Virus record (IMG/VR): IMGVR_UViG_3300027754_000039
Span: 1 to 64,000 of that record
DNA length: 64,000 nt
Reading direction: 5' to 3' (one strand)
Source: a virus
The translations under genes were made by a program, and so were the position numbers. This document shows, one piece after another, positions 35,044-54,357 of the stretch. Positions within the stretch are counted from its first letter, which is position 1; every line of letters begins with the position of its first letter. The notes beneath the pieces were generated by a model, which saw only the letters and a program-made list of their open reading frames with translations, made no database searches and was not told the DNA's origin.

Positions 35044-36672
<1,629 letters not shown>

Positions 36673-38022
36673 TTATATATTTTCTAATTCACCCCACCCA
36701 CCTAACGCATCTTCAATACGCTGTTGCGGAACTTCTTCTGTTTCTTTTGTTTCATCCACTACTTCTTTCTTTTCTCTTTTCTTAACTACTTTTGGTTCCA
36801 CAAATGAATTAAAGTCGGCAAAGTTAAAAAATTCTTCATGAACTTCTTTTGCAATATTCATTACATTCTCTCCGCCAAATTTAACATAGAATTGTCTATA
36901 TCTTTCATACACTGCAATTGGATCAGAGGATACAAACATTTCTTCCATTGACTTTAAAATTTGTATTAAGTCATTTGGAATTAATTCTGCTAGAACTTCT
37001 AATGGACAAGTATTAACTAACTTCTCTACCTGATCTGCAGTGTATACATACATATACAAATTATGATAAGTTAATCGAGTAACTGCTTCTGTCGAATAAT
37101 TTTTTACTGTATCCCATTTCAAATACTCAACACCTGGATGATTAATTAATGACGGAACGTGTCCTGTAGTTGGATATACAATATTACTTGAATCTTTAGG
37201 AAAGTATAACATATTAAATACTTGATCTTTCCAATTAGGACTCCATACCATTTGCCCAAAGATAGGATACTGACCTGGAGATGAACTATCTGTTGATACA
37301 GTAATTCTATTATTAGTATGTATATTTAATAATTTCTGTAATTGAGATAAAATGAAAAAGTCAGATACTTTTGAAATGCCTAATAAGTGAACCCAAGTAT
37401 TATATTCTTTATCAAACTCTTTTTCTTTAATCATTAAAGCTAGAATATACATAAAGTCTACAAGACGTCTAGATGAACCTATACACCATCCACCAAACTC
37501 CATATCTCTAACAGTCTTATACCAATGAGAAAACTCTACAGGATTAGAACCTTGAACTACATTTAAAAATTTAGTCTTACCAGTTTGTTTCTTTTCAAAA
37601 TATTTAAAATTATCTAAACTGATATCTAAAGACTCTTGGAACCTTCCTTCATAAGTCACGCGTGGCGGAATATCTATATTACAAGCAATGTCTGAATTGT
37701 TTTCTAACCATTCAAAAATTCTATCACGTAATGCCATATCCCATTTCAATGCACCAGTTGCAATTTGGAATCCACCAGAGTCGCCAAATACTAAAGTATC
37801 TTGCAATCCCCAAGTTTGTCTAATGTTATCTTTCTTATAAAGATGACCTGCTGTCATCAAGAAGTATTTATATCTCCACTCCTCAGGAGTACGGTCATCC
37901 CAAAATCTATAAGGGACACCGGGTGCTACTTCCATATCTTTAGTTAGTGGAGAAGCATAAGCTCCACTCGACAAACTAGGGAAATAGCAGAGTTTTTTTG
38001 GACTATTTGATTTTAATATCAT
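36673..38022 (-). CDS. dpdA: DNA 7-deazaguanine transglycosylase (DpdA, TGT fold)
   Basis: DSGGFQ, DIPP, VQG, HLLG and DSSSP motifs; lacks the CxCxxC zinc site of tRNA TGT; near folE/queD/queE. Confidence 0.85.
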   Translation of the reverse strand: MILKSNSPKKLCYFPSLSSGAYASPLTKDMEVAPGVPYRFWDDRTPEEWRYKYFLMTAGHLYKKDNIRQTWGLQDTLVFGDSGGFQIATGALKWDMALRDRIFEWLENNSDIACNIDIPPRVTYEGRFQESLDISLDNFKYFEKKQTGKTKFLNVVQGSNPVEFSHWYKTVRDMEFGGWCIGSSRRLVDFMYILALMIKEKEFDKEYNTWVHLLGISKVSDFFILSQLQKLLNIHTNNRITVSTDSSSPGQYPIFGQMVWSPNWKDQVFNMLYFPKDSSNIVYPTTGHVPSLINHPGVEYLKWDTVKNYSTEAVTRLTYHNLYMYVYTADQVEKLVNTCPLEVLAELIPNDLIQILKSMEEMFVSSDPIAVYERYRQFYVKFGGENVMNIAKEVHEEFFNFADFNSFVEPKVVKKREKKEVVDETKETEEVPQQRIEDALGGWGELENI

Positions 38023-38041
38023 AACTTTATTTATTTATACT

Positions 38042-38073
38042 TAAATATAGGAAATTCTTATGTGTCTACCAAA
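38042..38073 (-). promoter_or_regulatory. Bacteroidota-type promoter TTTG-N20-TATATTTA for dpdA
   Basis: Motif in intergenic gap. Confidence 0.75.
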
Positions 38074-38805
38074 TTAATTTGAAAACTTTTTACCTTTATT
38101 CCAAGGAATTCTAGGCACATAAGTTCCATTTTTAATTTTTTCTTCTTTATTTCGTTTTCTAGAAGCCATACATTTTTTAACAATTTCAAGGTCTTTCATA
38201 GAATTTATCTTTTTAGATAAAGAATTTTTAATTTTATTTACAGTTTCCAAACTTGGCGAAATGCCTTTATTCCATGCAGTTCTTCCGGTGGGTCGACCCT
38301 TCATATTTTCATAATGTACTAATCGAGCGGGTGTCATAACTTTTTTCTTTCCTTTAGTAGCTTTAGATAGTTTAGCTTTATATTCATCACTTCTCGGATG
38401 CTTTAATCCTAAATTAATATCTCGTAATTTTTGTTTTGTATCTTCCGACATAATTCGGCCAGTCATTTGTTTAGTTAAATAAGGAATCCATTTATCTTTT
38501 GCTTCTTGATACATTCTACTCGACGGAGTGTAATTACTTAGTTTATATCTTAACGCATTTTTTAAATTACACATACGAAAAAATGCATGAGCTAATTTAT
38601 TAGAATCAATATATACTCGTATTAATAGCCAATGGCATATAAAATGCTCACGAGCTGTTAATAAAACTAAATTTTCTTTTTTATTACTGCCTCCTAAACA
38701 TTTAGGTACAATATGGTGCTTTTCATAATACACACTAGTTCCTTTAATTCGATTTTCAGTTCGAGCTTTTTCTATTATTTGATTGTATATTTTTTCGTAA
38801 TTCAT
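38074..38805 (-). mobile_element. free-standing HNH homing endonuclease with NUMOD3-like repeats
   Basis: EKHHIVPKCLGGSN..NLV.LTAREH..CH; AWNKG and PWNKG repeats. Confidence 0.88.
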
Positions 38806-38914
38806 AATACCTAGTCATTATTGAATCTTTATTTTTTTGATAGTATTCATCATTCCATCGTTTTCTAGCAGTCTTTTGCTCCTCAACGGTTTGATATTTT
38901 TTCTTTCTACCCAT
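38756..38914 (-). CDS. 52-aa basic helical ORF overlapping the HNH start (not in ORF track)
   Basis: Hand translation MGRKKKYQTVEEQKTARKRWNDEYYQKNKDS... Confidence 0.55.
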   Translation of the reverse strand: MGRKKKYQTVEEQKTARKRWNDEYYQKNKDSIMTRYYELRKNIQSNNRKSSN

Positions 38915-38945
38915 TCAATAATAATTATATACTTATGAAAAAAAC

Positions 38946-39950
38946 TTATGAAATAGTACCAAATATTTCTTTAATAATTGGCTCTGAATCGTAAAAGGTT
39001 TCAAATAAATGTGTCTGCTGTTCTTTAATTAAAGGAATATAAAAATCATAATTTTCAATTAGATGTTTTATCTTACCTGTTAAGTCTGGAGCGAATTTAC
39101 TGTAATTGAAAATATTTGCCGTCCATTCAGCTGGATATCTAAAATCTAAAGGAACTAAATCTTTTAACCCTTCAATATCAGGTACCAAAGGTATAGTGCC
39201 TAGCAAAAAACATTCATAAATTTCTTTTCCAATATTTGGAGAGTCGTAAGGAAGAAATGCAACTTTAGCTTTAGCAATTTGATTTAATAATTGATCTCGA
39301 GTTAATGGAAGACGTTCTTGAGCAAATATAACTTTTATATCTTTGTACACTCGTATAAAGTCGTATACAATCTGTTCCTGTAGCGTTGAATACTTATTCC
39401 ATGGAAAGATAACCATGCTTTGTTTAAAGTAACTATCCTTATATAAAGACATATCCAATATTAAATACTCTAATGGAAAAGGCATTACATTTAATCTTTC
39501 AGGAAATACAAATTTAGAAACGTATATACGAAACTGCTCTTTATGAAATTCAGATATAAAAAATGATTTATCTAAACAACGAAAAGATGCCCTTTCATGT
39601 ACCTTTCTCCAATTACGATCATTTAATGGACGATACTCTGAATCTAAATTTAAGTAACACCCACGTGACCAAAAGCCAATCATCTTAACCGGCACTTGAT
39701 AATTTTCTGACCAGTGTCTAACATACACAGTCATTGACGACCAAGCATTAGGAAACACAAATAAATCGTCAGGAGTAATTACTCCATTCTGAAAATGTTG
39801 CTTAATTAATGAAGGGTCCATAATTTCTACAACTTCAAACTCATTAGGCTTTGTAGACTCTACATACCCATGAAGAATAGAAGCTAAATGACTTTCCCAA
39901 GAATTCTCGTCAGTAATAAGTGGGTCTATTACTACATAAACTCTTTTCAT
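38946..39950 (-). CDS. GT-B glycosyltransferase-like protein, degenerate paralog of 43597..44619
   Basis: Shared blocks VKxxGxxxxG, DxxFxxSxxHK, LTxxxxxxxxAKA, PxEWT; ETFG replaced by PNIG. Confidence 0.65.
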   Translation of the reverse strand: MKRVYVVIDPLITDENSWESHLASILHGYVESTKPNEFEVVEIMDPSLIKQHFQNGVITPDDLFVFPNAWSSMTVYVRHWSENYQVPVKMIGFWSRGCYLNLDSEYRPLNDRNWRKVHERASFRCLDKSFFISEFHKEQFRIYVSKFVFPERLNVMPFPLEYLILDMSLYKDSYFKQSMVIFPWNKYSTLQEQIVYDFIRVYKDIKVIFAQERLPLTRDQLLNQIAKAKVAFLPYDSPNIGKEIYECFLLGTIPLVPDIEGLKDLVPLDFRYPAEWTANIFNYSKFAPDLTGKIKHLIENYDFYIPLIKEQQTHLFETFYDSEPIIKEIFGTIS

Positions 39951-40303
39951 AGCTTTTCTACTCTAGCTCCATTTTCCATATCTTCCCAACATTCAACCCA
40001 ATCACATTCAAATCTTTCTAGCAATTCTCTAGATAACATTTCACAAGACTTAGGCCCAAACTCTAAAGTTCTAGATTGATTATCTGAATATTGATTATGT
40101 AAATAATTTAATACATCCCGTTTAAACATAATAAACTCTACATCTCGATCATCGTGATTAACCATTTTAGCTAAAGTAAAATGAAACATATGTCTATGTC
40201 TATCTGCTAAAAATGCAACTTCTGGAAACAACTCTGCTGCTTTTGGGAAGTTGTGCATTCCGTCTACTGCTAGCTTAACTAATACTACCGTCTTTGTTAT
40301 CAT
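39947..40303 (-). CDS. dpdL: QueD-like T-fold protein, DpdL-like (putative CDG decarboxylase)
   Basis: LADRHRHMF fits the LxxxHRHxF signature I recall for DpdL; SCEML and WED T-fold motifs. Confidence 0.7.
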   Translation of the reverse strand: MITKTVVLVKLAVDGMHNFPKAAELFPEVAFLADRHRHMFHFTLAKMVNHDDRDVEFIMFKRDVLNYLHNQYSDNQSRTLEFGPKSCEMLSRELLERFECDWVECWEDMENGARVEKL

Positions 40304-40436
40304 GTTTTTCTTTTATTATTTTTAAATTTTCTTCTGCTATCTTAGCAATAATTTCTTTAATTTCAGACATTGAATGCTCATAATCTTTTTCCAACTCAAA
40401 ATTAATTTCGTCTGTTTTAACTTTTAATTTTATCAT
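40275..40436 (-). CDS. 53-aa hypothetical protein (not in ORF track)
   Basis: Hand translation MIKLKVKTDEINFELEKDY...; ATGA overlap with the clpP stop. Confidence 0.55.
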   Translation of the reverse strand: MIKLKVKTDEINFELEKDYEHSMSEIKEIIAKIAEENLKIIKEKHDNKDGSIS

Positions 40437-41017
40437 ACTATTTCATCTATTAGTTTATACTGCAAAGCTTCTTCTGGAGACATATACCAATCAAATTTAA
40501 CTTTTTTACTATCGTCTAATTGCTTTCGCTTCAATGAAGTTTTGCTAATTAAATAATCGTCATACACTTTCATTATTCGTTTAGTCTCTTGAAGATTTTC
40601 ATTCAAGGTAGAAAGCTTTTCATATGGCAATTGATCTAGGCATTCGTGATACATAAAAGTCGATAACTTATGACCAAATCGTTGATGACCTGAAACTAAA
40701 ATTAATAAAGCCATTGACATTGCCGATCCATAACAATATGTATGCACAGGAGTTTTAGATTTTTCTATAACACCAATTAAAGCAAATCCATCATATACCG
40801 AACCTCCCATGCTATTAACAATTAATTTGATAGGAGTTCTTGTATACTCAACTACATTATCTTCATTCTCGTCGTCAATTTCATTAATGTCACAAATGTC
40901 TTGCATTATTTCACTAACCGTTAACTCATCAACCTCTCCACTTAATATAAGTGTTCGTGATAAATTTTCTTTATCTAATCTAGATGTCTTACTTTTTTTC
41001 TGTGCTATTTTATTCAT
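40433..41017 (-). CDS. clpP: ClpP-like serine protease
   Basis: NSMGGSV..G, AMSMA catalytic Ser, MYHE His, EALQYKLID. Confidence 0.88.
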   Translation of the reverse strand: MNKIAQKKSKTSRLDKENLSRTLILSGEVDELTVSEIMQDICDINEIDDENEDNVVEYTRTPIKLIVNSMGGSVYDGFALIGVIEKSKTPVHTYCYGSAMSMALLILVSGHQRFGHKLSTFMYHECLDQLPYEKLSTLNENLQETKRIMKVYDDYLISKTSLKRKQLDDSKKVKFDWYMSPEEALQYKLIDEIV

Positions 41018-41027
41018 AACTTAAATT

Positions 41028-43595
41028 TTAACTAAATGAAAAGAAATCTGCCATATTATCATTCTTAGGTATGCCTCCCCAATTCAAAGCTTGATAAAAA
41101 TCACCTAACTTATTTTCCAAAGAAGCAATAAATATCCTTTCATAATCAATATATTGAGTTATAAATTTAATAATTTCTTTTGGATCTTCAAAGCCCTTTA
41201 CAGCTAAAGTATCTAATCCTAATGGATTTTGTTTAAGATAAGTCCATTTAATTTTTTCTCCATCCAATATAGGTTGTGAAGCCGTAATATTATAATATAT
41301 CATTAAGTCATTATAATTCAATGCCGACTTAGCGTGTATTGGAGTTCCTTTAACTCTGTTACCAAATACTTGACCTTTAATCTTTTTAGTTTTGTATTTG
41401 GATAATTCTTTAATACCTGTCGGAAACATAATGTCAAACATAGGTTTAGTTTTCATATCTTCTCGAAATGCTAACACCTTATCATCAATTTTTTTCTTTT
41501 CAGAAATATTTAAAATGTCAATTAAGATACCTGACATAAACTCTCTAAATGCTTTTGGAAAATTACTTCTTACAACATCCATACCTTTAACATCTAACTT
41601 CCACTCTTTAGCTCCGTTAGTCATTTGTGATATTAATACTCCTTTCTCAGAAATAATTTTTTGTGCATAACGTTTTTTTGCAATCCACAAACCAGATTCA
41701 GATACATACTCTTGTTTAATATTTAAAAAGTGTTTATCTGAATTTAAAAAGTGCTTACAAAATTCATCCCAAGATGCATTAATATAATTTTCAACTACTT
41801 GAGAAGTTTTATAAGTAACGTCAATCTTCTCTTGCTTGGTCATCTCTTTACCCATCTTAGTTTCCATTAAGTCAATAATTGGCTTAGCTGAAAAGTAATT
41901 GGAATCTGTATCTACATAAATTACATACTCTTTATCAACTCCTGTCTGTTTAGTAAACCATTCATTGCCTTTCATCATGGCGTGACGAATAACTTGCTGA
42001 CCTGTTAATGTAATTGACTCTGCATTATCTAAATCATGAAATCTAAATCCAGGAGCTCCTAAAGCTCCATATAAAGAGTTATTTACAATCTTCATAGTGT
42101 GCTGTCTGGAGTCAAAGAATTTAGACATATCAGCATTACCCTCCTTACCATACTTCTTTGCTAAGCCACGATATTCTTCACGCTCGCCCATCCAAGTTTC
42201 TAATATAGAAGGAATCAATCCACTTTTGGAATAATCATATACAACACCAATAGAAGATACTGTAAATTTATTATCTACTAACCATTGTCTAAATTCTACA
42301 ATTGGAATCATTACGTGCTTAGCACCTGATTTAATTTTAGCATTGGCATTGGAAAAAGAGTCAGTCCAAAAATCATTTTTAACTGCATCCCAATTTTCTA
42401 CTCTACCTACTTTGGTCTCTGGAGATATATTTAACGTTCTAATAATAGAAGGATATAGTGAAGCCATATCCTCATCAAACACCCATTCATATAAACCTGG
42501 TATTGGATCTTTTACATAAGCTCCAGCAAAATCATTAGAATGTGGATCTGTCGATTCTGCAGAGTGATCTCTTAACTTTCTATTAGGAGCAATAATGCCT
42601 AAACGTTTCATATACGTTACACAGGCTCCATCTAAATATCTAGTTGTAAAATAAACATCTTCATAAGGCACATGACCTTTATGACAGATACCTCGAGCCA
42701 AAGATAGGAATTTAAGTTTTTCATCTAACTCTAAAACTAATATAACGTCATTGATATTATATGCAATAAACTTTTCAGGATCTGTTTTATATAAATGATC
42801 CAAAGTTCCTTCATATTCAATTTTACCTTTACCTAATTCTTTTTTAGAAATAGAATCTAACGAATAAGACACCTCTTCAGAGTATGTAAATAATTTATAC
42901 AATGCCATGTAATCTAAACAACTAACACCCATAATTCTATAACGATTACGATGTTGAAGATAAATTACTTCATTGATTGGAGATAGCGAATCGGCATATT
43001 CCTTACCTACTACCTTTGTCATACGATTATATAAATAAGGAATATCAAAGAAATCAATATTCCATCCTGTTATAATGGTCGGTCTTATTTCTTGATAGTG
43101 AGCTAGAAATCTAGAAATCAATTCGTGTTCAGTTTGAACTACTTCTAAAATTAAATTAGCATCTGTATATGGCTTTAAAGTTCTTTTAGCATCGACAATA
43201 ATAGCTACTGACTGATTGCCTACTCTATCATGAAAGGCAATTGAAGTCATTGGTTGCCAAGCATCTTCTGCTGACGAAAAGCCTCCTTCGGTATTTACTT
43301 CAATATCTATAAATAATTCTCTATGTCCTATTGAAGGCTCATCTGTTTGAAAATATAAATCAATTAAAGTTCTAGTCTCTGGATTAATATCTGATTCATA
43401 TATATGACCTTTTTGAACATCCATTTCATCCCAATCAGTTACTCTATCAACTTTCGATCCATCTAAAGCTGCATGACGACCATGAGAATTTTTCTTATAA
43501 GCATATTTTTTATATGGGAATTTAAGATGACCATTTTTGTCATCCCAGACGTGCATAATATTTTTATGCTTTTGATATGCTATATTTTGGTACAT
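41028..43595 (-). CDS. family B DNA polymerase (gp43-like)
   Basis: DIEV, GWNIDFFD, DMASLYPS, KIVNNSLYG, YVDTDS. Confidence 0.97.
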   Translation of the reverse strand: MYQNIAYQKHKNIMHVWDDKNGHLKFPYKKYAYKKNSHGRHAALDGSKVDRVTDWDEMDVQKGHIYESDINPETRTLIDLYFQTDEPSIGHRELFIDIEVNTEGGFSSAEDAWQPMTSIAFHDRVGNQSVAIIVDAKRTLKPYTDANLILEVVQTEHELISRFLAHYQEIRPTIITGWNIDFFDIPYLYNRMTKVVGKEYADSLSPINEVIYLQHRNRYRIMGVSCLDYMALYKLFTYSEEVSYSLDSISKKELGKGKIEYEGTLDHLYKTDPEKFIAYNINDVILVLELDEKLKFLSLARGICHKGHVPYEDVYFTTRYLDGACVTYMKRLGIIAPNRKLRDHSAESTDPHSNDFAGAYVKDPIPGLYEWVFDEDMASLYPSIIRTLNISPETKVGRVENWDAVKNDFWTDSFSNANAKIKSGAKHVMIPIVEFRQWLVDNKFTVSSIGVVYDYSKSGLIPSILETWMGEREEYRGLAKKYGKEGNADMSKFFDSRQHTMKIVNNSLYGALGAPGFRFHDLDNAESITLTGQQVIRHAMMKGNEWFTKQTGVDKEYVIYVDTDSNYFSAKPIIDLMETKMGKEMTKQEKIDVTYKTSQVVENYINASWDEFCKHFLNSDKHFLNIKQEYVSESGLWIAKKRYAQKIISEKGVLISQMTNGAKEWKLDVKGMDVVRSNFPKAFREFMSGILIDILNISEKKKIDDKVLAFREDMKTKPMFDIMFPTGIKELSKYKTKKIKGQVFGNRVKGTPIHAKSALNYNDLMIYYNITASQPILDGEKIKWTYLKQNPLGLDTLAVKGFEDPKEIIKFITQYIDYERIFIASLENKLGDFYQALNWGGIPKNDNMADFFSFS

Positions 43596-43596
43596 C

Positions 43597-44619
43597 TTAT
43601 TTTTCTGATTTAATTATATCAATCATTGTTTGTGCATTGTTATTCCACTTTGCTGTCCACTCAAAAGGAACAGTTAAGTCACAACTGTCAAATAGAAAAT
43701 CAATATCTTTAACTCTGTCATATACATTGACAGACGGTACCATTTCAGGGCAACATGCTCTATTTGGAACTAATATATTACAATTAAAGAAAATAGCTTC
43801 TTGTATTGTATATCCAAAAGTTTCTTGATAACAGGTTGATAAATACCAACGAGCCTTTGCCATTAAAGTAAAATATTCTTTTTTAGTTAAGTTAAATTTA
43901 AACTCGATATTTCTAGGCAGATTAGTTCCACAATCTTTTACAGGACCTGAAGACGTAACTATTATTTTTTTATTTGTGCTATTGGCATATTGAATTAACT
44001 CGCCTAAGCCTTTTTCATTACACCACCTATGAGGCCAAATAACAAAATCTTCTTTTACAACATATCCAATCTCTTCATGAAACTCTTGCATATAATTCAA
44101 GTCCCAAATTAAACCTGTCGTATGCACTGTAGCTGTATTCAATCCAAAATATTCACATACATTATATTTGTGATCGTCGCTACCTACAAAAATGCCATCA
44201 CAAATTTGATGATATCCTAATTCAGAAGCGTCTGCCCAATGACCTAATTTTTGTACAAAGTCTGTGCTATCAGCTCTACCAGCATAATTAATTCCATATA
44301 CCTTAACATCAATATCTTGAAGCTCTGCCATGTATTTAATCATTTCAATACCTGGGAAGAATATATCTCCTATTAGAAATGCATCTCCATTATTAACTTT
44401 GCCTTCATTGAAAAGGTCTGCAATCATTTGCAACTGTGCTGCTTTGAATTTGCAAGTATTAACAATATCTAAAAATTGACCACGCTTGATTTCTTTGTCA
44501 ATTTCTACCTTCGGATACAATGAAATGTCTACTTTAGGGTAAATAGCTGCATTCATCATTTGGGTATAGCGAGCTGGTAACTCTTCTATAGGAATGTAAA
44601 TTATTTTATTTTTTGTCAT
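43597..44619 (-). CDS. GT-B glycosyltransferase, candidate DNA-modifying
   Basis: HRWCNEKG, QETFGYTIQEA, PEM; abuts the polymerase gene. Confidence 0.78.
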   Translation of the reverse strand: MTKNKIIYIPIEELPARYTQMMNAAIYPKVDISLYPKVEIDKEIKRGQFLDIVNTCKFKAAQLQMIADLFNEGKVNNGDAFLIGDIFFPGIEMIKYMAELQDIDVKVYGINYAGRADSTDFVQKLGHWADASELGYHQICDGIFVGSDDHKYNVCEYFGLNTATVHTTGLIWDLNYMQEFHEEIGYVVKEDFVIWPHRWCNEKGLGELIQYANSTNKKIIVTSSGPVKDCGTNLPRNIEFKFNLTKKEYFTLMAKARWYLSTCYQETFGYTIQEAIFFNCNILVPNRACCPEMVPSVNVYDRVKDIDFLFDSCDLTVPFEWTAKWNNNAQTMIDIIKSEK

Positions 44620-44650
44620 AACTTTTTATTTTAATAAAATATATGATTTT

Positions 44651-46051
44651 CTATTCAAAAAAGCTAGAGATAGTTTTGTTTTCTTTTGGTAATTCTTTTT
44701 TAATTAAATTACCATTATCATCTGGAACTCCTAAGTAAGTAAATTGCTTTTCATGAAGTATTTGATACCAAGATTGATTGGTGTATATAGCTTCTATATC
44801 TGAAGTAAGATATATTGTTCCTTTTGTATTTTCCGTTCTAAAATAATCTTCTAAAGACATCCAAAACCCTTTATGCTCTTTTAAATAAGTATAAAGACGA
44901 TTGCGTGGTTCTTGTTTTGCTTGCACTCCACCAAAAGCATCTTCAACTAAATTTAACAAAGCTGTTTCATAATCTACTTTATATTGAGTAAATTCCAACT
45001 CTACTTTAGTCTCATCTACTTTCCAGGTATTATAAGCTGACCATATTATATCCGATACTTCTTTGGAATCTGCAACTATTAAATTGCTCATGCCTTGAAA
45101 ATTATAATGCCAATCATAATTGCGTAAAACAACTGTCGGCATAAATCGAAGAGCCTCTAAAACTGCAATACCAAAGGATTCATTTTTATAAGGCATAAAT
45201 GCTACTTTGGCAGATTGAATTATTTTTGCTTTCTCTTCTCCTACAACATCACATTTGATTTCATAATTGGTATGACCTATAGCAGCAAAGTCAGCTTCAA
45301 ACTTTTTAACGTGTGCAGAACGAGTTAGCACTTTTGCTTTTAACTCAACTCCATGCTTTGCTTTTATATCGGCCAGTACCTTAATATACATACCCGGATT
45401 CTTTCTATCCTCGTGTCTTCCTATATAGAGTACCCCTTCCTTCTCAAGATTGTATACGACGTTAGAATCGGTTAATGGATAAGGCTGAATATATAAATTA
45501 GGATTGGAGTAAGGCAATTTAGATAGTAGCTTTGCTTTATTTTGTTTAGTTTGTATCAATGTTGTAATTGGAAAATACATCATTTGCTCAATTAAATTAT
45601 AATAACAATCTTTAAATACTCCAGCTCCTAATTCTGGATTTATAGATTGACATTCATGAGCGTATGAACTAACTCTCATATGTTTATAAAGCTCTAATTG
45701 ATAACATACAAAAGCAGACTCTGTGTCATTGCAAATAACTAAATCATACTTATGATTAGCTAACGCTTTTACTATTGCAGTTCGAAAATTAATTGACTTT
45801 TCAAAATTAAAGCTGTCTGCAAATTGAAATAAATTGGAATGCTTACCATAAGACAATCGCTCTTGCTTGTCTGGATAGTAAACACTAATTCCAGATTCTT
45901 TTAGAAAATTTTCTTCAGGTTCTCCGTCACATATAACATCTATAAAATGCCCATGCTCTAATAAAGTTTCTACTACCCCCTTCATGAAAATTCCGTGTCC
46001 TGAACTAGGCCTAAAATTCATTCTGTTAATGATGAATGCTACTCTTTTCAT
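44651..46051 (-). CDS. GT-B (GT4-like) glycosyltransferase with C-terminal extension and clamp-binding-like motif
   Basis: GRHEDRKN, NESFGIAVLEA; ends NKTISSFFE. Confidence 0.8.
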   Translation of the reverse strand: MKRVAFIINRMNFRPSSGHGIFMKGVVETLLEHGHFIDVICDGEPEENFLKESGISVYYPDKQERLSYGKHSNLFQFADSFNFEKSINFRTAIVKALANHKYDLVICNDTESAFVCYQLELYKHMRVSSYAHECQSINPELGAGVFKDCYYNLIEQMMYFPITTLIQTKQNKAKLLSKLPYSNPNLYIQPYPLTDSNVVYNLEKEGVLYIGRHEDRKNPGMYIKVLADIKAKHGVELKAKVLTRSAHVKKFEADFAAIGHTNYEIKCDVVGEEKAKIIQSAKVAFMPYKNESFGIAVLEALRFMPTVVLRNYDWHYNFQGMSNLIVADSKEVSDIIWSAYNTWKVDETKVELEFTQYKVDYETALLNLVEDAFGGVQAKQEPRNRLYTYLKEHKGFWMSLEDYFRTENTKGTIYLTSDIEAIYTNQSWYQILHEKQFTYLGVPDDNGNLIKKELPKENKTISSFFE

Positions 46052-46074
46052 AATATATTTTTTAAAAATAATAT

Positions 46075-46410
46075 CCGTGCCGGCGGGTTATTATCCTTTA
46101 ATTAATTGTTTAGTTGCTGTTAATTTATCGATACGAGAATCGATATACGAGTGATTCTCATCTACTCGTCTATGTACATTTTCTAATTCCTTTTCTATCC
46201 TTTGATAAATTTCAGAATTGCCATTATTTATGAATTGGTGAATTTGATTTACTTCATCTTGTAAACCTCTTAATTGTTTTTGCTGTTTTAATACCTTCAC
46301 AATACTCAAAACAATAACTGACGCAAAAACGACAGCTATTACAGAAAGCACTCCAAAAGTAAATGATACTATTTCCATATTGCTTATTTTGTTTTTATTT
46401 GCCGGCACGG
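46075..46410. repeat. 10-bp perfect GC-rich inverted repeat CCGTGCCGGC (46075..46084) / GCCGGCACGG (46401..46410) flanking one gene
   Basis: Read directly from sequence. Confidence 0.8.
46091..46378 (-). CDS. N-terminal TM plus coiled-coil protein
   Basis: MEIVSF start preferred over 46417. Confidence 0.65.
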   Translation of the reverse strand: MEIVSFTFGVLSVIAVVFASVIVLSIVKVLKQQKQLRGLQDEVNQIHQFINNGNSEIYQRIEKELENVHRRVDENHSYIDSRIDKLTATKQLIKG

Positions 46411-46766
46411 CTATCATTTACGCTACCAGAGGTTGCAAGTACTTTTAAAGCTACAATGTCAGGGACTTGAAATCCTAACAATCGCAAATCAGCTAAATCC
46501 ATACGAGTTAATCCTTTGGCCGTAATTTTTTTTCTTCTATTTGATTCGTGTTTAAATTTTAATAACTCAGCACACTTTTCATATTCTTCTAAATTGCTAT
46601 AATATATTATCAAGCAATCATAGATAAATTGTCTATCTGTATGTTTAGGTACATCATACTTACATACTAACCTAAATACATTATCAATCGTTTGCTTCGC
46701 TGACGGAAGTTCTTCTGCCATCACTAAAAACAAATTTAATCGATCTTGACGTTCGTCCGGAGTCAT
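46395..46766 (-). CDS. hypothetical protein with UVR-like motif
   Basis: EEYEKCAELLK. Confidence 0.6.
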   Translation of the reverse strand: MTPDERQDRLNLFLVMAEELPSAKQTIDNVFRLVCKYDVPKHTDRQFIYDCLIIYYSNLEEYEKCAELLKFKHESNRRKKITAKGLTRMDLADLRLLGFQVPDIVALKVLATSGSVNDSRAGK

Positions 46767-47398
46767 TAATCTAACTTATCTACGAAACGATAAAACTCAT
46801 TTCTAGCTGCTGGGTCAATTAAAAATGCTCCTGACATCTTTGAAGTCATCATTGTCGAGTCGTGACGTACACCTCTCACACAAGCACACATATGATTCGC
46901 TGCTACCATTACTGCTACACCTTTATTACCTTCACACACTGTATTGATATACTCGTGAATTTGCATAGTTAAATTTTCTTGAACCTGAGGTCTGCGAGCA
47001 AAATACTCTACAATACGATTTAGTTTAGACAATCCAATAACCTTACCATCTTCAGACGGAATATAAGCTACGTGTGCATATCCAATAAAAGGTAAATGAT
47101 GATGAGAGCAAAAAGACTTTACATCAATATTGCCTTGAAATACAATTCCATCATACTTATCTAAATTGTCAAATGCTGTAATTTTCGGAGCATCTTCATA
47201 ACAACCTTGAGCTAAATCATTAACAAAGGCTTTTGCAACTCGCATTGGAGTGTCTGAAGAGTTAGGATCGTTTTCCCAATCAATACCTAACGCAGTCATG
47301 TAAGCTCCATAATGTGAAGCTGCAGCTATAATCATAGCCTGCTTCTCTTCTTTAGTTCTAGGAATAGAAGAGTTAGCATATTTTAATAATTCTTTCAT
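46766..47398 (-). CDS. folE: GTP cyclohydrolase I
   Basis: [32 protein letters not shown], CxxxRG. Confidence 0.96.
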
Positions 47399-47402
47399 AT
47401 TG

Positions 47403-47434
47403 TAAATATAAGGAGTTCTAATGAATAAACCAAA
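47403..47434 (-). promoter_or_regulatory. Bacteroidota-type promoter TTTG-N20-TATATTTA, 4 nt before the folE ATG
   Basis: Motif fills the gap. Confidence 0.78.
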
Positions 47435-47767
47435 TTATAATGGTAATTCAATTTGAGTATTTTCTTTAAATACTGCTAGCAAATCAGACTCTCTGAAAAG
47501 AATATATTTTTCTTTGTTAAGTTTAATTTCTTGACCACCATATGCTGGTATCATTACTTCATCACCTTCTTTAACTGACATTGGAATTGAAACTCCATTC
47601 TGAGTATACAATCCAGCTCCTACTGAAATTACTTTTCCCATTTTAACGTCATCTGCAGTTGCAGTTTCTGGAATAATAATTCCTGATGCTGTTTTCTTTT
47701 CTTCTTTAGTTTTATGTTCTTTAACTAAAACTCTGTCGCCTAAAGGCTTAATTACTTTATTTTCCAT
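47435..47767 (-). CDS. groES: co-chaperonin GroES
   Basis: KPLGDRVLV, TASGIIIP, VGAG, ESDLLA. Confidence 0.95.
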   Translation of the reverse strand: MENKVIKPLGDRVLVKEHKTKEEKKTASGIIIPETATADDVKMGKVISVGAGLYTQNGVSIPMSVKEGDEVMIPAYGGQEIKLNKEKYILFRESDLLAVFKENTQIELPL

Positions 47768-47768
47768 A

Positions 47769-47957
47769 TTAATCGATTGTATATTTGTCAGCTCCGTCTT
47801 CTGATTTAGCTACTATGCTTCCGTTAGCTAACACTGTTAATGTTAAATTGTATTCTTGTTTTAAAAAATCTTTAATTGCAACTATATCCATATGGTTTGT
47901 TTTCCATAATAAATGTAAAACGTTCATTGCGTCAAATGCTGTTGGTGTCTGTATCAT
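47769..47957 (-). CDS. hypothetical protein
   Basis: 62 aa ORF. Confidence 0.55.
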   Translation of the reverse strand: MIQTPTAFDAMNVLHLLWKTNHMDIVAIKDFLKQEYNLTLTVLANGSIVAKSEDGADKYTID

Positions 47958-47958
47958 A

Positions 47959-48723
47959 TTATACTCCTCGTTTATCGTTATAAGCTACTATGTGAGCTCT
48001 TCCTGTGAAATTATAGCCTCTTTTAATACACTCTTCCATTACATAAGGATAGTTAGGTTGTAATTTATCTAGCGTATCTCCTGCTGGCATAACCCATACT
48101 TTATTTTTAGGTATGTCATGAGTTGCAATAAACTCTTCTATTTCATTCCACACTTCAGGATCGTTTCTATCTACAACTGGTTTGAAATGATAATCTAAAT
48201 GATACTCCATCATCTTTTTCATAACATCATGATTCATTCTAAATTTGTTATGTTGTGTGATAAGCTTTTCATTTACATCTACTCCTAATGGAGTTTCAGT
48301 TCCTAATTTTGGAATTGAGTTTTTAAACTTAGGTGATAGTGATATTAAATCTATTTTATAATTAGTTTCAATAAAATGGCTTCCTTCAGTTTCAATAGTA
48401 ACATACATTCCTCTCATACGTTTAGCTATATTAACTAATTCATCAACTAACTCAGGATGCATAGTTGGAGAACCACCTGATATCATTAAATGATTGATCT
48501 GAGGATTGGTTTCAAATAGTTCTTGAATAGCATTAAGAGTCCAAGTACCTTTCTCTGGATGAATACTTGTATACCAAGAATCACACCATCCTCCTTCTCC
48601 AAAGTAACATCTGTGAGTACAGCCTGTTGTTCTTACTAGAAAATGAGGACGACCTGCTCGTGAACCTTCAGTTTGAACGCAAGTATATGCTTCAATGATA
48701 GGTTGTATTTTATTATAGTCCAT
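47959..48723 (-). CDS. queE: 7-carboxy-7-deazaguanine synthase (radical SAM)
   Basis: QTEG, RTTGC, CDS, SGGSP, ETEG, SPK; Cys motif is Cx3Cx7C. Confidence 0.9.
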   Translation of the reverse strand: MDYNKIQPIIEAYTCVQTEGSRAGRPHFLVRTTGCTHRCYFGEGGWCDSWYTSIHPEKGTWTLNAIQELFETNPQINHLMISGGSPTMHPELVDELVNIAKRMRGMYVTIETEGSHFIETNYKIDLISLSPKFKNSIPKLGTETPLGVDVNEKLITQHNKFRMNHDVMKKMMEYHLDYHFKPVVDRNDPEVWNEIEEFIATHDIPKNKVWVMPAGDTLDKLQPNYPYVMEECIKRGYNFTGRAHIVAYNDKRGV

Positions 48724-48725
48724 AT

Positions 48726-49064
48726 TTATAACTTATTTTTAATAATATTAATTTTAACATCTCCATTAATAATTTGATCTTGCACCTTAGATGCTTCTTT
48801 AAAGTTTTTACAGTCCGTTACATCCACATTGATTGTTATTCCTAACTCTTTTAATTGCTCAGGCGTTAATGGTTTAATTGGTTCAGGTTTTACAAACTTT
48901 GGATAAGTTCTTTTAAGTGGTTCTTTTTTAAAGAAGTAACCAGCTATGTCGACATAAGGTAATAATTCTTTATCACCTTCAATAGTTGTAGTTCCATTTT
49001 CGGCTTTTAACATTACTATTTTATATCCCATTTTATGAGACAACCATTTAATTATTTTTATCAT
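48726..49064 (-). CDS. hypothetical protein
   Basis: 112 aa ORF between queD and queE. Confidence 0.6.
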   Translation of the reverse strand: MIKIIKWLSHKMGYKIVMLKAENGTTTIEGDKELLPYVDIAGYFFKKEPLKRTYPKFVKPEPIKPLTPEQLKELGITINVDVTDCKNFKEASKVQDQIINGDVKINIIKNKL

Positions 49065-49095
49065 ATATGTAATTTATTTTAATGTCTCCGAATGT

Positions 49096-49108
49096 GGTTG
49101 TTACAACC
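49096..49108 (-). other. short hairpin GGTTG-TAA-CAACC after queD
   Basis: 5-bp perfect stem, no U-tract. Confidence 0.35.
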
Positions 49109-49114
49109 CAATAA

Positions 49115-49591
49115 TTATTCTTCATAGATGCTAGAGTTTTTATCATTTTCAAAACATTCTACTTTAATCACTTTACATCTACCAGCGTCTGTCTTAGATA
49201 ACACTTCATTAAAGTGATCATAAACTAATTTAGCATTGCTTTCAGCTCCCATTTTATCTAGTAAATGAACTTTAGCTAAACCCATTTGCCCTAATTGTTC
49301 AAATACATCAGCATAAGGATCGTCTTTTTGAATTAGTAAAGTATGATCCCACATATGATCCATCCATGACTTAAGACCATTGCCTACTGGTTTGTCTTTA
49401 AACCCTGAATAGTCTACAATCCAATTCATATCGTCTAACTGTTTATTAACGTCAGGTTCATTGGAGGCGAACCATACTTTAAATTTTAACGCATATCCAT
49501 GTAATAATTGACAGTGTGAATGTTGAGCTTTCCACTGTCTAATTGCCACGCTATAGTTATCAAAAGTTTTAGTACTTAAATACTGTGCCAT
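49115..49591 (-). CDS. queD: 6-carboxy-5,6,7,8-tetrahydropterin synthase
   Basis: HCQLLHGY, WIVDY, WDH, AE.NA, VECFEN. Confidence 0.88.
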   Translation of the reverse strand: MAQYLSTKTFDNYSVAIRQWKAQHSHCQLLHGYALKFKVWFASNEPDVNKQLDDMNWIVDYSGFKDKPVGNGLKSWMDHMWDHTLLIQKDDPYADVFEQLGQMGLAKVHLLDKMGAESNAKLVYDHFNEVLSKTDAGRCKVIKVECFENDKNSSIYEE

Positions 49592-51861: not shown

Positions 51862-53298
51862 TTAGCTAGCTGCTAATTGAGCGTTAATAAAAGTAGATTT
51901 AGTTCCAGCGTATCGTTTATGTTCAATCTTTCCTTGAGATTGAGATATACCATAAATGATAAATTCTTTAGCTAATCCAATTGCTGGCTGAGGTTCTCCT
52001 TCAAGATAATATACAAATCCTTTAATATGTGAAAAATAATCTCTTTTTCGATCGATAAAATCTTGAACAATTTCTTCAGGATTTTTTACAAACGTATGTT
52101 TTACAATTAAAAGCATTGCGTGTAAAAAAGTTTTAAAGTCTTTTTCTACAGGAGCAGTTACTTTAATTCTAGCTTCCTTACCTTTTGAACCAGCATCTTG
52201 AATTTCCGCTGCATCCTTTGCACTAATATAATATTGTACATCCGAATCTGCTCCTGCTGTTTGAAGTACTAATTTAGCATTATTAACTAACTCTTTTTGA
52301 CTTATAATAGTTCCACGTAAATCTTTTAATTTTTTAAATCCGTCATAATGTAAATCAATAACTCCGGTTGGATATTCTGCGGCTGCTATCATTCTATCAA
52401 AAAAGTTTTCTTTAGTAATTGTAGAAGTATTATCTTCAGCAGCTGCTTTTTTATCTTTTGCAGATACTCCATATCCATCTCCACGAAAATTTGTAGTTAA
52501 TATAGAATACATTGAATTTGCAGTATCTGCATTTCCAAATACTTTAGTTAAATTAGCTTTTAATTCTGAATCTTTAGAAGAATCGTTTAATTCAATAGCA
52601 TTTAACAATTCATAAAATTTACGAAGCTCATTAATATATTTAAATCGTCCGGCAAATCCTGACTGTGCCATTCTAATACCCGTTGGATCTTCTTTAACTT
52701 CCCAAACTCCGTCTGGTAGTTTTAAATCTTTTTCTGCCGTACCTCCTGACTTAGCTCCTTTAATAGCCATTACTGCCATCATTTCCCCTCGGCCCATTCC
52801 TTTAGGAGCTATGTCAAAAAACTCTTTCCAAAGATCCCAATCTGATTTGATAAAAGATTTTAAAGTGCTTTTTTGAAATGAGTCTATCCAAGATTTTTGT
52901 TTTTTCGGAAATTTTGAAAATATATCAAAAATAAACTTTTTAGCTTGATCAGGAACATCTGGCTCAATACCTTTAACTTCTCCATTAACCAATGCTTTAA
53001 ATTTATCTAAATTTGTAGCTTCTGTTAATAATCGTTTAAAAGGAGCTTTAACGCCCATTTCATCTAGAATTTCTTGCAGTCTAATCATATCTGATTTATT
53101 GCTCATATCCGGATATCCTTTATCACAACGATAGCTCCATTCAGTTACAATAGCATCAAAATCTAGTTTTGGCTCTTTTGAAGTTGAAGTTGTTTTAGTT
53201 TCGATAATAATTTCTTTAGGTGTGTCATTAACTGACTCGTTATTTGACTTTGCAAATAAAGCGTCTAAGTCAATTGATCTAGAAGTATCTTTCTTCAT
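51862..53298 (-). CDS. protein with EWSYR..KGYPD N-terminal domain and PD-(D/E)xK-like nuclease motif
   Basis: GRGE...KDL...WEVKE. Confidence 0.55.
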   Translation of the reverse strand: MKKDTSRSIDLDALFAKSNNESVNDTPKEIIIETKTTSTSKEPKLDFDAIVTEWSYRCDKGYPDMSNKSDMIRLQEILDEMGVKAPFKRLLTEATNLDKFKALVNGEVKGIEPDVPDQAKKFIFDIFSKFPKKQKSWIDSFQKSTLKSFIKSDWDLWKEFFDIAPKGMGRGEMMAVMAIKGAKSGGTAEKDLKLPDGVWEVKEDPTGIRMAQSGFAGRFKYINELRKFYELLNAIELNDSSKDSELKANLTKVFGNADTANSMYSILTTNFRGDGYGVSAKDKKAAAEDNTSTITKENFFDRMIAAAEYPTGVIDLHYDGFKKLKDLRGTIISQKELVNNAKLVLQTAGADSDVQYYISAKDAAEIQDAGSKGKEARIKVTAPVEKDFKTFLHAMLLIVKHTFVKNPEEIVQDFIDRKRDYFSHIKGFVYYLEGEPQPAIGLAKEFIIYGISQSQGKIEHKRYAGTKSTFINAQLAAS

Positions 53299-53821
53299 AA
53301 TGTAATAAATCTAATTTAGATGATACGTCAATTAATTGTGCAGCGTTTAGCAAATCAGAATATTCAGCTATTGCTTGATTTTGAATTTTTCTAAACTTTT
53401 TCAAAAAGTCAAAGGTAGGTAAATGTTCTGAAAATATATCTGCTGATATTTTATTATAGTCTTCTCCTAACTTAAACTCAATGGCATATGATTTATTTAC
53501 AATATCAATTAAACTGTCAAATTCTCCATTGAATTTAACTGAAGGAAGAATTGGCATTGCATTCCAATCTATCATATATTTTTGAAGCATTACAGAGTGT
53601 TCCAATTCAGATACAGACTCAGCTTCGAAGAAAGCTGCTGCTTTTTTATAATTTACATTGATACACCAATTAGCTGCACTTCTGTAAAAATAGTGCGCTG
53701 CATATTCATCAGCCAACCTATCATTAAATGCAGATATAATAGTCTCAGGAAGTGTTTTAGGTTTTAAAACTGATGACTGAGAAGCTACTACATTTTGCAC
53801 TGTTGTGTTTGGATATTCCAT
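53279..53821 (-). CDS. ferritin
   Basis: DEYAAHYFY, ESVSELEH, E and Q ferroxidase-type ligands. Confidence 0.85.
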   Translation of the reverse strand: MEYPNTTVQNVVASQSSVLKPKTLPETIISAFNDRLADEYAAHYFYRSAANWCINVNYKKAAAFFEAESVSELEHSVMLQKYMIDWNAMPILPSVKFNGEFDSLIDIVNKSYAIEFKLGEDYNKISADIFSEHLPTFDFLKKFRKIQNQAIAEYSDLLNAAQLIDVSSKLDLLHYEERYF

Positions 53822-53855
53822 ATTATTATTACTTTAAAATAAATATCGAAAAGTA

Positions 53856-54278: not shown

Positions 54279-54302
54279 AGGTGTGTTTTTATTTTTGGAT
54301 TG

Positions 54303-54329
54303 AGCCTGTATGTGTTGTACATACAGACT
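54303..54329. other. stem-loop between nrdJ and dut (8-bp perfect stem CTGTATGT/ACATACAG)
   Basis: Read directly from sequence. Confidence 0.55.
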
Positions 54330-54357
54330 ATAAATCCAATCTTCTTTTCTATTCATT

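Follow-up and report, generated by a model that had tools for sequence, protein, structure and literature searches.

Modification of phage DNA with 7-deazaguanine by a pathway that dispenses with QueC has been described in Cellulophaga phage phiST. According to the passages of PMC10516641 that deal with this phage, dDG was measured in its DNA; it is plain dDG, present in full replacement, and it is made with DpdL and no glycosyltransferase (GT). It has been proposed in the literature, though without proof, that DpdL is the decarboxylase of 7-carboxy-7-deazaguanine (CDG), and the supplement of PMC10516641 names the free base as the sole substrate of DpdL. About 27 genomes in DS1 of PMC10516641 combine FolE, QueD, QueE, DpdL and DpdA without QueC, and phages PA5oct, ACP17, BUDD and BCSR5 are listed there as DpdL phages; the word "glycosyl" is absent from the main text. 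Its account of ACP17 reports that dpdA and dpdL, introduced into E. coli without the GT, yielded no dDG, and that other enzymes are possibly needed (PMC10516641). For PA5oct, sections of PMC12191111 report an enzyme resistance pattern that points to modified G, and attack of the DNA by nucleases that sense hypermodified DNA. Since plain dDG is made in phiST without a GT, the core product does not require such an enzyme.

Sugars on modified bases are known from other systems. The alpha- and beta-glucosyltransferases of T4 place a sugar on 5-hydroxymethylcytosine DNA after replication and thus protect it from host nucleases. On a 7-deazaguanine base, the only sugars known to us are those of the glycosylated queuosines (QTMAN/GTDC1, QTGAL). 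These occur in tRNA, where it is the cyclopentenediol side chain that bears the sugar, and QTMAN has a GT4-type catalytic domain.

The window analyzed here comprises the first 64,000 nucleotides of a freshwater T4-like phage record (181,588 bp or 181.6 kb; 100% complete according to CheckV). Gene calls and translations bore out the coordinates of the genes named in the first-pass annotation, all of which lie on the minus strand. FolE, QueD and QueE are all encoded, as judged by Pfam and PHROG: folE (46766..47398; GTP cyclohydrolase I; PF01227, 6.1e-50), queE (47959..48723; a QueE-like radical SAM enzyme, CDG synthase; radical SAM 1.4e-7, PHROG QueE-like 3.5e-51) and queD (49115..49591; QueD-like CPH4 synthase; PTPS 1.4e-10, PHROG QueD-like 1.4e-32). 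Their products match ORFs of phiST (phmmer: QueE 6e-98, FolE 1e-66, QueD 2e-34), and so does the DpdL-type protein (2e-21). The lack of queC noted at first pass was confirmed, and it extends to Gat-QueC: PF06508 had no match in the complete 181,588-bp record, the control being found in 14/14 genomes, and none of 253 ORFs contained an SGGxDS motif. The same search answers the earlier reservation that a queC elsewhere in the genome might account for a known product, as none was found. Queuosine steps after QueC are also missing from this phage genome.

The dpdL-type T-fold gene (39947..40303) encodes a 118-aa paralog of QueD in which LxxxHRHxF replaces CxxxHGH; its translation reads L-ADR-HRH-M-F, and it is 39% identical to CGPG_00067, the DpdL of phiST. 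Residues H17, H36, R37, H38, C87, E88, E107, D108 and E110 are invariant across 26 homologs. The product of dpdA (36673..38022; 449 aa, motif FGDSGGFQ), a DpdA-like guanine transglycosylase, has no Pfam match of its own at E<=0.01; 8 of 14 members of its family match TGT (PF01702). Its model, of moderate confidence (pLDDT 70.8) and with the last ~60 C-terminal residues disordered, has a TGT fold: 309 residues align with TGT 7nq4_A (VIA Z 23.0, rmsd 3.8), and all 50 Foldseek matches listed are TGT or DpdA, including 7ui4. All of 14 homologs retain D81, D117 and D245, and the DSGGFQ motif of TGT carries a catalytic Asp. Comparisons with named DpdA types point to more than one of them. Identity is 30% with gp168 of PA5oct, filed as DpdA3 in DS1 of PMC10516641, and hhalign gives 95.6% with gp123 of ACP17, filed there as DpdA2; no similarity to DpdA3 of phiST (CGPG_00065) is detectable (BLASTP best E 0.43; hhalign probability 1.5%). 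Altogether, the region is a DpdL-type, QueC-less 7-deazaguanine DNA-modification core of a class already described. The proposal of a candidate new hypermodification thus has to be narrowed: the core set is known, and what is new is the glycosyltransferases, whose tie to the pathway held up. A literature search found no paper describing GTs tied to the DpdL/DpdA deazaguanine DNA pathway.

The pathway genes form a closely packed array in a single direction within the T4-like replication module, interspersed with polB (41028-43595; B-family polymerase by Pfam), clpP, groES and two homing endonucleases. One of these, an HNH/NUMOD3 gene (38074..38805; PHROG 655, 3.7e-43), is a mobile insert separating dpdA from the first GT gene; it is missing from DNA contigs assembled for runs X2 and X5, in which 37986 is joined to 38957. 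Three GT genes were named at first pass, and we refer to them by product length: GT334 (38946..39950), GT340 (43597..44619) and GT466 (44651..46051). The start codon of GT334 overlaps the dpdL stop codon (ATGA), and one base separates the end of GT340 from the start of polB.

All three are GT genes; however, GT340 alone keeps the full signature of its family. Its model (pLDDT 94.8) has a GT4-type GT-B fold, with BshA, MshA and GlgM as top Foldseek matches (E ~1e-11), and 35 of 40 family members match Glycos_transf_1. R17, Y18, D85, D120, K203 and E274 are invariant in 40/40 members, and R198 and E266 in 39/40; among 143 family ORFs of the surveyed loci, the eight-residue signature reads RYDDRKEE in 108 and RYDDRKDE in 19. 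GT340 retains the R/K pair and E-x7-E (R198, K203, E266, E274), residues that presumably bind the donor, as in other GT4 enzymes. The Atlas clusters nearest to the family are 100% viral. Given the GT4 fold and the invariant residues, GT340 looks like a working enzyme of a virus-specific GT4 clade.

GT334 has no library profile match but shows homology to the family of GT340 (hhalign 99.3%, E 8.7e-21; A2 profile 1.3e-11), and its GT-B fold is assigned by this homology alone. Its signature, --NDNLPE against RYDDRKEE, has lost six of eight residues, and N, L, P and E occupy the positions of the R/K pair and E-x7-E. It is probably a degenerate, non-catalytic paralog; with the fold kept and the donor-binding residues lost, it would most likely act as a partner or substrate-binding subunit of GT340. 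An active GT-B enzyme working beside an inactive paralog is known from GtfA/GtfB, a pair that GT340 and GT334 would resemble in combining a catalytic GT-B with a paralog that lacks catalytic residues; the GtfA/B complex (5e9t) appears at rank 47 of the GT340 Foldseek matches. GT466 is a generic GT4-type glycosyltransferase (Glycos_transf_1, 5e-9, Pfam) with a C-terminal extension of ~130 aa. It occupies the same position in clade relatives and is 33% identical to a BUCT-ZZ01 gene adjoining folE. Its association with the pathway is weaker than that of GT340, being confined to this clade, BUCT-ZZ01 and one other locus.

Linkage of the GT340 family to the pathway was surveyed in IMG/VR loci centered on the best 80 of 192 confirmed GTs (28-82% identical to GT340), calling DpdL homologs at phmmer E<=1e-3. 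A DpdL gene was found within 10 kb of the GT in 75 of these 80 loci, counts that do not represent independent events, as the loci are inter-related and many are fragments. In 27 of the 75 the two genes are same-strand neighbors, and 59 of the 75 have them within 2 kb of each other. After clustering of the GTs, 13/14 clusters at 50% identity and 36/38 at 60% had a locus with DpdL, and among GenBank phages, 18 of 23 records matched by GT340 carry DpdL. The gene order is dpdA-GT-dpdL-queE in ACP17, dpdA-GT-dpdL in PA5oct and folE-GT466like-dpdAlike-dpdL-GT in BUCT-ZZ01. Hence, the outcome that would have spoken against the first-pass idea, homologs of these GTs being usually unlinked to dpdA, does not hold for the GT340 family. 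The association is not exclusive: five of the 80 loci show no DpdL, and in PhiXhv-12, whose whole 227 kb contains no DpdL, a family member (profile 3e-50) adjoins GlmS and a deacetylase.

In the reverse direction, a GT of this family was detected in 52 of 80 DpdL-centered loci, or in 21 of 38 where both flanks were >=5 kb, and one relative, 96% complete and with a DpdL of 74% identity, is entirely without a GT. With the linkage tight from GT to DpdL and looser from DpdL to GT, glycosylation looks like an add-on to the core pathway. The GT does follow the type of DpdA: where a window-type DpdA occurs at a DpdL locus, this GT is present in 29 of 30 cases.

These data bear on a plain explanation, namely that the DNA contains simple dDG as in phiST, and that the GTs serve virion proteins, host envelope glycans or a small metabolite, sharing an early "DNA-metabolism region" with the pathway as cargo. 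The full replacement reported for phiST without a GT (PMC10516641) speaks for it, and so do PhiXhv-12 and the narrow linkage of the generic GT466. The phage also has a separate 20-kb nucleotide-sugar/glycan cluster, in which no fewer than four further GT-like genes lie at 9.7-29.4 kb of the window, and part of its GT complement is therefore clearly devoted to other targets. Chance, however, explains neither the presence of DpdL in so many GT loci and clusters nor their adjacency, and DpdL is a rare gene (29 of 50,697 phage records). In addition, dpdA and dpdL flank the GT in Pseudomonas and Acidovorax phages, and in a Synechococcus phage the GT is the immediate neighbor of dpdL. The evidence supports that GT340-family genes are not placed by the pathway genes by chance, and we consider this explanation unlikely, if the most serious of the alternatives.

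The reading we favor, which stands at about even balance in our judgment, is that a sugar would be placed on deazaguanine, before or after its entry into DNA. The reports on PA5oct DNA (PMC12191111) and on the ACP17 genes expressed without the GT (PMC10516641) speak for it. FolE, QueD and QueE would convert GTP into CDG, as is known chemistry for these families, and the DpdL T-fold protein would decarboxylate CDG to 7-deazaguanine, as proposed but unproven in the literature. The TGT-fold DpdA, judging from fold and motif, would then act on replicated phage DNA and put the deazapurine in the place of guanine. GT340, given its gene linkage and intact signature, would use a nucleotide sugar as donor to glycosylate deazaguanine, either as the free base ahead of DpdA insertion or as dDG once it is part of the DNA. 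The predicted product is a sugar-bearing 7-deazapurine in virion DNA; if so, the DNA of this phage may bear a sugar-carrying purine. GT466 may be responsible for a second sugar, or it may serve the separate glycan programme of the phage.

This reading has a chemical difficulty: hydroxyl groups are the normal acceptors of GT4 enzymes and 7-deazaguanine offers none, so the acceptor atom is left without explanation. Moreover, the solved structures closest to GT340 act on small molecules, not on DNA. BshA, MshA, GlgM and sucrose-phosphate synthase are among them, as is a tetrahydrobiopterin glucosyltransferase (9v0l/9v0w), and their substrates suggest that the GT might act on a free pathway compound, be it 7-deazaguanine, CDG or an intermediate of the pterin type, whose sugar does not reach DNA. 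The sugar could serve transiently for activation or as a carrier group, it could allow surplus base to be stored or detoxified, or it could be part of a pterin glycoside. Frequent translational coupling of the GT to dpdL fits such a role, as does the restriction of DpdL to the free base stated in the supplement of PMC10516641. Structural neighbors within GT4, however, tell little about the acceptor, and the co-variation of the GT with DpdA type points to the DNA-insertion step. We also know of no precedent for a sugar as carrier group of this kind, and we regard action on a free molecule as rather improbable.

Two further possibilities place the sugar on another substrate. One, already raised at first pass, is that a second base, a hydroxymethyl-pyrimidine, is glycosylated as in T-even phages, independently of the deazaguanine pathway. 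Glycosyltransferases acting on 5hmC DNA are the textbook case, and the region does sit in a T4-like replication module. Yet the genome supports the earlier remark that TET/JBP oxidases and hydroxymethylases are missing: profiles for Tet_JBP and ThyX had no match, and the sole thymidylate-synthase-family gene (PF00303) scores as an ordinary ThyA equivalog (TIGR03284, 293.7 bits; cut-off, 108). A second base would also leave the GT-DpdL linkage unexplained; the option gained no support and is very improbable. The other possibility is that the GT resembles QTMAN and has as its substrate a queuosine-type base of tRNA instead of DNA. Glycosylated queuosines do occur there, but neither QueC nor any subsequent step towards queuosine is present in the phage, PF12038 (QTMAN_N) matched 0/40 family members at E<=0.1 and nothing in this genome at E<=10, and the names QTMAN and GTDC1 do not occur among 30 PDB sequence matches. 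We give this possibility hardly any weight.

When the locus is set against known systems, the T4 glucosyltransferases are the analogous phage enzymes that add sugar to a modified DNA base, but that base is a pyrimidine, whereas a purine analogue is concerned here. T4 also supplies a hydroxymethylated acceptor, whereas the window phage has no hydroxymethylase; among the Foldseek matches listed for GT340, the top ones are GT4 enzymes and none is a T4 glucosyltransferase chain. As to queuosine, its cyclopentenediol side chain cannot be made by this phage, and the QTMAN_N domain is absent from both the GT340 family and the genome. With phiST (PMC10516641) the window has in common FolE, QueD, QueE, a DpdL with LxxxHRHxF, a DpdA-type transglycosylase, the lack of QueC and a pathway that adjoins the DNA polymerase. 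They differ in the transglycosylase, which in phiST is a DpdA3 of 259 aa, with no detectable similarity to the 449-aa DpdA of the window, and in the GTs: GT340, GT334 and GT466 are additions of the window, and neither GT334 nor GT340 has a match in Cellulophaga phages. Likeness is also found in ACP17, PA5oct, Phosso, BUDD/X1, BCSR5 and BUCT-ZZ01, which carry DpdA-GT-DpdL trios with the same three families together. GT340 is 26-29% identical to the GTs of these phages over most of its length (23% for BUCT-ZZ01), and the full signature is kept in PA5oct and ACP17 and reads RYDDRKDE in BUCT-ZZ01; GT466-like genes occur apart from the trio GT in BUCT-ZZ01, X1 and BUDD. Each trio phage has a single GT of the GT340 family, whereas the clade of the window has a full and a degenerate copy, and its cluster, unlike theirs, is split by polB and clpP.

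The modification genes of this phage comprise a known part, a DpdL-type deazaguanine system, and a new part, a virus-specific GT4 glycosyltransferase family that behaves as its optional extension. The core genes that the first-pass annotation had named, and their positions, held when examined with Pfam, PHROGs and NCBIfam, by motifs and by fold. The folE (46766-47398), queE (47959-48723) and queD (49115-49591) genes are matched in the three libraries and by the corresponding genes of Cellulophaga phage phiST (phmmer 1e-66, 6e-98 and 2e-34, respectively). The dpdL-type gene (39947-40303) encodes a T-fold protein of 118 aa with the motif L-ADR-HRH-M-F and 39% identity to CGPG_00067, the DpdL of phiST. 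Three histidines, an S-C-E motif and acidic residues are invariant across 26 DpdL homologs; a search of PDB sequences with DpdL as single sequence gave chance-level matches only. The absence of queC extends beyond the window, as PF06508 had 0 matches in the whole genome and the control was positive in 14 of 14 genomes.

A pathway without QueC, interleaved with glycosyltransferases, had been put forward as a candidate new hypermodification. However, PMC10516641 describes exactly such a set of core genes, so that the lack of QueC, taken alone, places the pathway in an already documented class and is nothing out of the ordinary. The same source reports that dG is wholly replaced by dDG in phiST, proposes that DpdL is a CDG decarboxylase, and lists in its supplement sheet DS1 about 27 DpdL genomes, including those of PA5oct, ACP17, BUDD and BCSR5. 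E. coli carrying dpdA and dpdL from either phiST or ACP17 produced no dDG, and the authors allow for further enzymes.

The remaining core gene encodes a DpdA-like protein of 449 aa (36673-38022) that contains the sequence FGDSGGFQ and has no Pfam match of its own at E<=0.01. Its homologs (899 at E<=0.001) include some with a stored TGT match, and PF01702 is matched by 8 of 14 aligned members, with a best E of 1.1e-6. No PDB sequence was found with the single sequence; the profile retrieved only an antibody, a spurious match, and the fold search decided instead. The DpdA model (pLDDT 70.8) superimposes on tRNA-guanine transglycosylases with Z 23.0 and rmsd 3.8 over 309 residues, and the matches include 7ui4, a solved bacterial DpdA. 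The isoelectric point is acidic (5.4), and isoelectric points were uninformative. The protein is 30% identical (E 2e-22) to a PA5oct protein classified as DpdA3 in DS1 of PMC10516641, and profile comparison gave 95.6% with the 'DpdA2' of ACP17 and 59.8% with the dpdA-like neighbour in Synechococcus phage BUCT-ZZ01. No similarity to the DpdA3 of phiST was found. The window protein is thus filed as a TGT-fold DpdA without a subfamily label.

The source record is a single contig of 181,588 bp with 32% G+C and 100% completeness according to CheckV; the window is its first 64 kb, and nearly all window genes lie on the minus strand. A T4-like replication set is present (PolB, sliding clamp, clamp loader, gp32-like, UvsX-like, DnaB-like and RNase H proteins). 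The best cultured PolB relative is that of Microcystis phage Mel-JY01 (40.7%), and no close DNA-level match to the window was found among GenBank phages. Among the matches listed, parts of the window occur in assembled contigs of 24 public runs from 16 studies, mostly labelled as freshwater or lake water. Contigs identical to the window are found in a lake RNA library (run X3), which is no proof of transcription. Promoter and terminator scans yielded 77 and 5 hits, compared with 77.7 and 4.2 in shuffled sequence; hence, no operon claim is made from them. Genes for GroEL, GroES and a ClpP-like protease (35044-36654, 47435-47767 and 40433-41017) sit amid the replication and modification genes. 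Besides PolB, the window has a weak DNA_pol_A-like ORF; this ORF and genes for a dUTPase, a ferritin-like protein and a ribonucleotide reductase resembling class II are found at 61280-62632 and 53279-56214.

The look of the modification cluster is scattered, in part because of mobile inserts that relatives lack. In DNA contigs from two public runs, X2 and X5, position 37986 is followed directly by 38957 and the HNH homing endonuclease (38074-38805) is missing, so that dpdA abuts the glycosyltransferase gene GT334 in these relatives. Likewise, contigs of X3 and X5 join 48720 to 49062 without the 112-aa ORF (48726-49064) that separates queE and queD, and a GIY-YIG endonuclease adjoins queD.

The GT family is represented in this phage by a full copy, GT340 (43597-44619), and a degenerate paralog, GT334 (38946-39950); a third glycosyltransferase gene, GT466 (44651-46051), lies nearby, and the three are on the minus strand. 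The Pfam match of GT340 itself is weak (0.0018), and Glycos_transf_1 is matched by 35 of 40 aligned family members. An exhaustive search with a limit of E<=0.001 delimited the family at 922 clusters of 50% identity, compared with 538 when the limit is E<=1e-10, and the atlas clusters nearest GT340 are 100% viral. Single-sequence search of PDB sequences with GT340 found nothing; its model (pLDDT 94.8) has a GT4-type GT-B fold with BshA, MshA, GlgM and PglA as best matches. A QTMAN-like identity was also considered and was not supported by the comparisons made. Residues R17, Y18, D85, G114, D120, K203 and E274 are invariant in 40 of 40 members, and R198 and E266 are kept in 39. We take R198 and K203 to be the GT4 donor-binding pair, and E266-x7-E274 is presumably the EX7E motif. 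Conservation of residues in the N-terminal domain suggests that the family may act on one conserved acceptor. Across the 143 family ORFs of all fetched loci, the eight-residue signature is RYDDRKEE in 108, as in GT340, and RYDDRKDE in 19.

The start codon of GT334 overlaps the dpdL stop codon. No match to GT334 was found in Pfam, PHROGs or NCBIfam; homology to the GT340 family was detected by hhalign (99.3%, E 8.7e-21) and by the family profile (1.3e-11). R17, Y18, D85 and K203 are missing in GT334 and in all nine sampled orthologs, and R198 and E266 are also missing in nearly all of them. Because signature residues are consistently lost, GT334 is probably not a normal Leloir transferase, in spite of its conservation, and may be viewed as a putative non-catalytic partner. 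This degenerate type accounts for 11 of the 143 family ORFs, found in the clade of this phage only and always beside a full copy.

To what extent the family belongs with the deazaguanine genes was examined in viral loci from IMG/VR. A GT-centred survey covered the best 80 of 192 confirmed loci, with 28-82% identity to GT340, and a DpdL homolog was detected in 75 of the 80 (phmmer, with the window DpdL as query). In these 75 loci, the two genes are same-strand neighbours in 27 and lie <=2 kb apart in 59. The loci without DpdL are L007, which ends within polB, L018, L078, L080 and L084. Survey loci are mutually related and many are fragments. With single-linkage grouping, a DpdL locus is present in 13 of 14 GT clusters at 50% identity and in 36 of 38 at 60%. 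GT340 matches 23 GenBank phage records and DpdL matches 29, with 18 records common to both sets. The cultured phages PA5oct, ACP17, BUCT-ZZ01 and Phosso carry the DpdA-GT-DpdL trio; in ACP17 (gp123-gp124-gp125, followed by queE) and in PA5oct (gp168-gp167-gp166), the GT is flanked by dpdA and dpdL. The order in BUCT-ZZ01 is queE, phosphoribosyltransferase, queD, folE, GT466-like gene, dpdA-like gene, dpdL and GT. The second of these genes (13303-13764 of locus L003) is annotated as a xanthine-guanine phosphoribosyltransferase, a hint that the pathway may branch at the nucleotide level.

The reverse survey, centred on DpdL and covering the best-scoring 80 of 563 confirmed loci, gave a different picture: the GT is present in 52 of the 80, and in 21 of the 38 loci where both flanks are >=5 kb. 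When five long GT-less contigs were searched in full, one contained a strong distant GT (1.8e-72), one a weak match and three none. Among these three is a relative, L087/G001 (an IMG/VR contig of 156,904 bp), which is 96% complete and shares 74% identity with the window in DpdL; it has folE, queE and queD near its dpdL, the GT family is found nowhere in the contig and window-type DpdA is absent within 10 kb of dpdL, making it a natural comparison genome. Window-type DpdA occurs at 30 DpdL loci, and the GT is also present in 29 of them. DpdL is therefore nearly always near the GT, yet DpdL occurs without the GT. Such one-way dependence would be expected if the GT carried out an added step on the pathway product.

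The first-pass annotation had tentatively tied all three glycosyltransferases to the pathway. The tie stands for the GT340 family; for GT466, a generic GT4, it is confined to the phage clade, whose members keep the gene position, to BUCT-ZZ01, where a counterpart with 33% identity adjoins folE, and to one further DpdL locus, L118. An IMG/VR search with GT466 returned 12 close relatives, all from the same clade, and is uninformative on wider linkage.

Other uses of the glycosyltransferases have to be weighed. A family member with 25% identity is present in Xanthomonas phage PhiXhv-12 (profile 3e-50) and in four records of related Xanthomonas/Erwinia phages. In PhiXhv-12 (L172, 6618-9852) the GT follows GlmS and an LmbE-like deacetylase, and no DpdL was found in the whole 227-kb record with a profile that was positive in ACP17, PA5oct, BUCT-ZZ01 and phiST. 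The family seems to be put to another use here, one of GlcN type. Furthermore, the solved structures nearest GT340 glycosylate small molecules, and the usual acceptors of GT4 enzymes are hydroxyl groups, of which 7-deazaguanine has none. Some glycosylation in this phage is surely aimed at other targets: a nucleotide-sugar/glycan cluster of ~20 kb (8878-29365), with matches all below equivalog cut-offs, encodes an NDP-sugar dehydrogenase, PseB-like and PseC-like proteins, a sugar-1-phosphate nucleotidyltransferase-like protein and two epimerase/dehydratases, as well as three TylF/CmcI-type methyltransferases and four further GT-like proteins, two of them GT2 and two GT4-like. The cluster may act on the virion, the host surface or DNA. 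Modification of a second base, which had also been contemplated, is unlikely, because the sole thymidylate-synthase-family gene (genome 145168-146397) scores as ThyA (equivalog 293.7 bits, cut-off 108) and a genome search yielded neither Tet_JBP, in agreement with the lack of a TET/JBP oxidase noted earlier, nor ThyX. The thymidylate synthase has 416 aa, and ThyA models match two to four separate stretches, indicating that it carries large insertions.

On balance, we consider a role of the GT family in the deazaguanine pathway likely, and we would give even chances to a final DNA base that carries a sugar. A more elaborate proposal, that 7-deazaguanine in DNA bears an unusual sugar or short glycan through cooperation of the active GT, its degenerate paralog, GT466 and the 20-kb cluster, seems improbable as a whole. 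Under such a proposal, the active GT and its paralog would together be the transferase specific for the base, GT466 would lengthen the glycan beyond a single hexose, and a rare nucleotide sugar of amino-, deoxy- or methylated type would come from the cluster. A sugar step could account for the failure of ACP17 dpdA and dpdL in E. coli, an attempt made without the GT. The DNA of phiST, which naturally lacks the GT, offers a control and perhaps a substrate, and the trio is available in cultured phages.

To our knowledge, the DNA bases known to bear sugars are all pyrimidines. A deazapurine with a sugar, if true, would thus found a new class, with a bearing on phage escape from restriction enzymes, from CRISPR and from the glycosylases specific for deazaguanine that were discovered recently; under the glycan proposal, if true, DNA would gain its first purine analogue with a glycan, which might also exceed all known natural bases in bulk. 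A full-text literature search, judged by titles and abstracts, retrieved neither a description of glycosylated 7-deazaguanine in DNA nor a paper tying a GT to DpdL. According to PMC12191111, which does not name the base, PA5oct DNA is resistant to several restriction enzymes with a pattern suggestive of modified G, and is targeted by nucleases that sense hypermodified DNA. Vibriophage VP1 shows full 7-deazaguanine substitution, and the accessible sections of that report (10.1101/2025.10.29.685425) mention glycosylation for cytosines only; for jumbo phages, deazaguanine appears in the sections seen of PMC13282480 only as a predicted capacity. According to PMC10516641, the 7-deazaguanines known in DNA have small groups at C7 or none.
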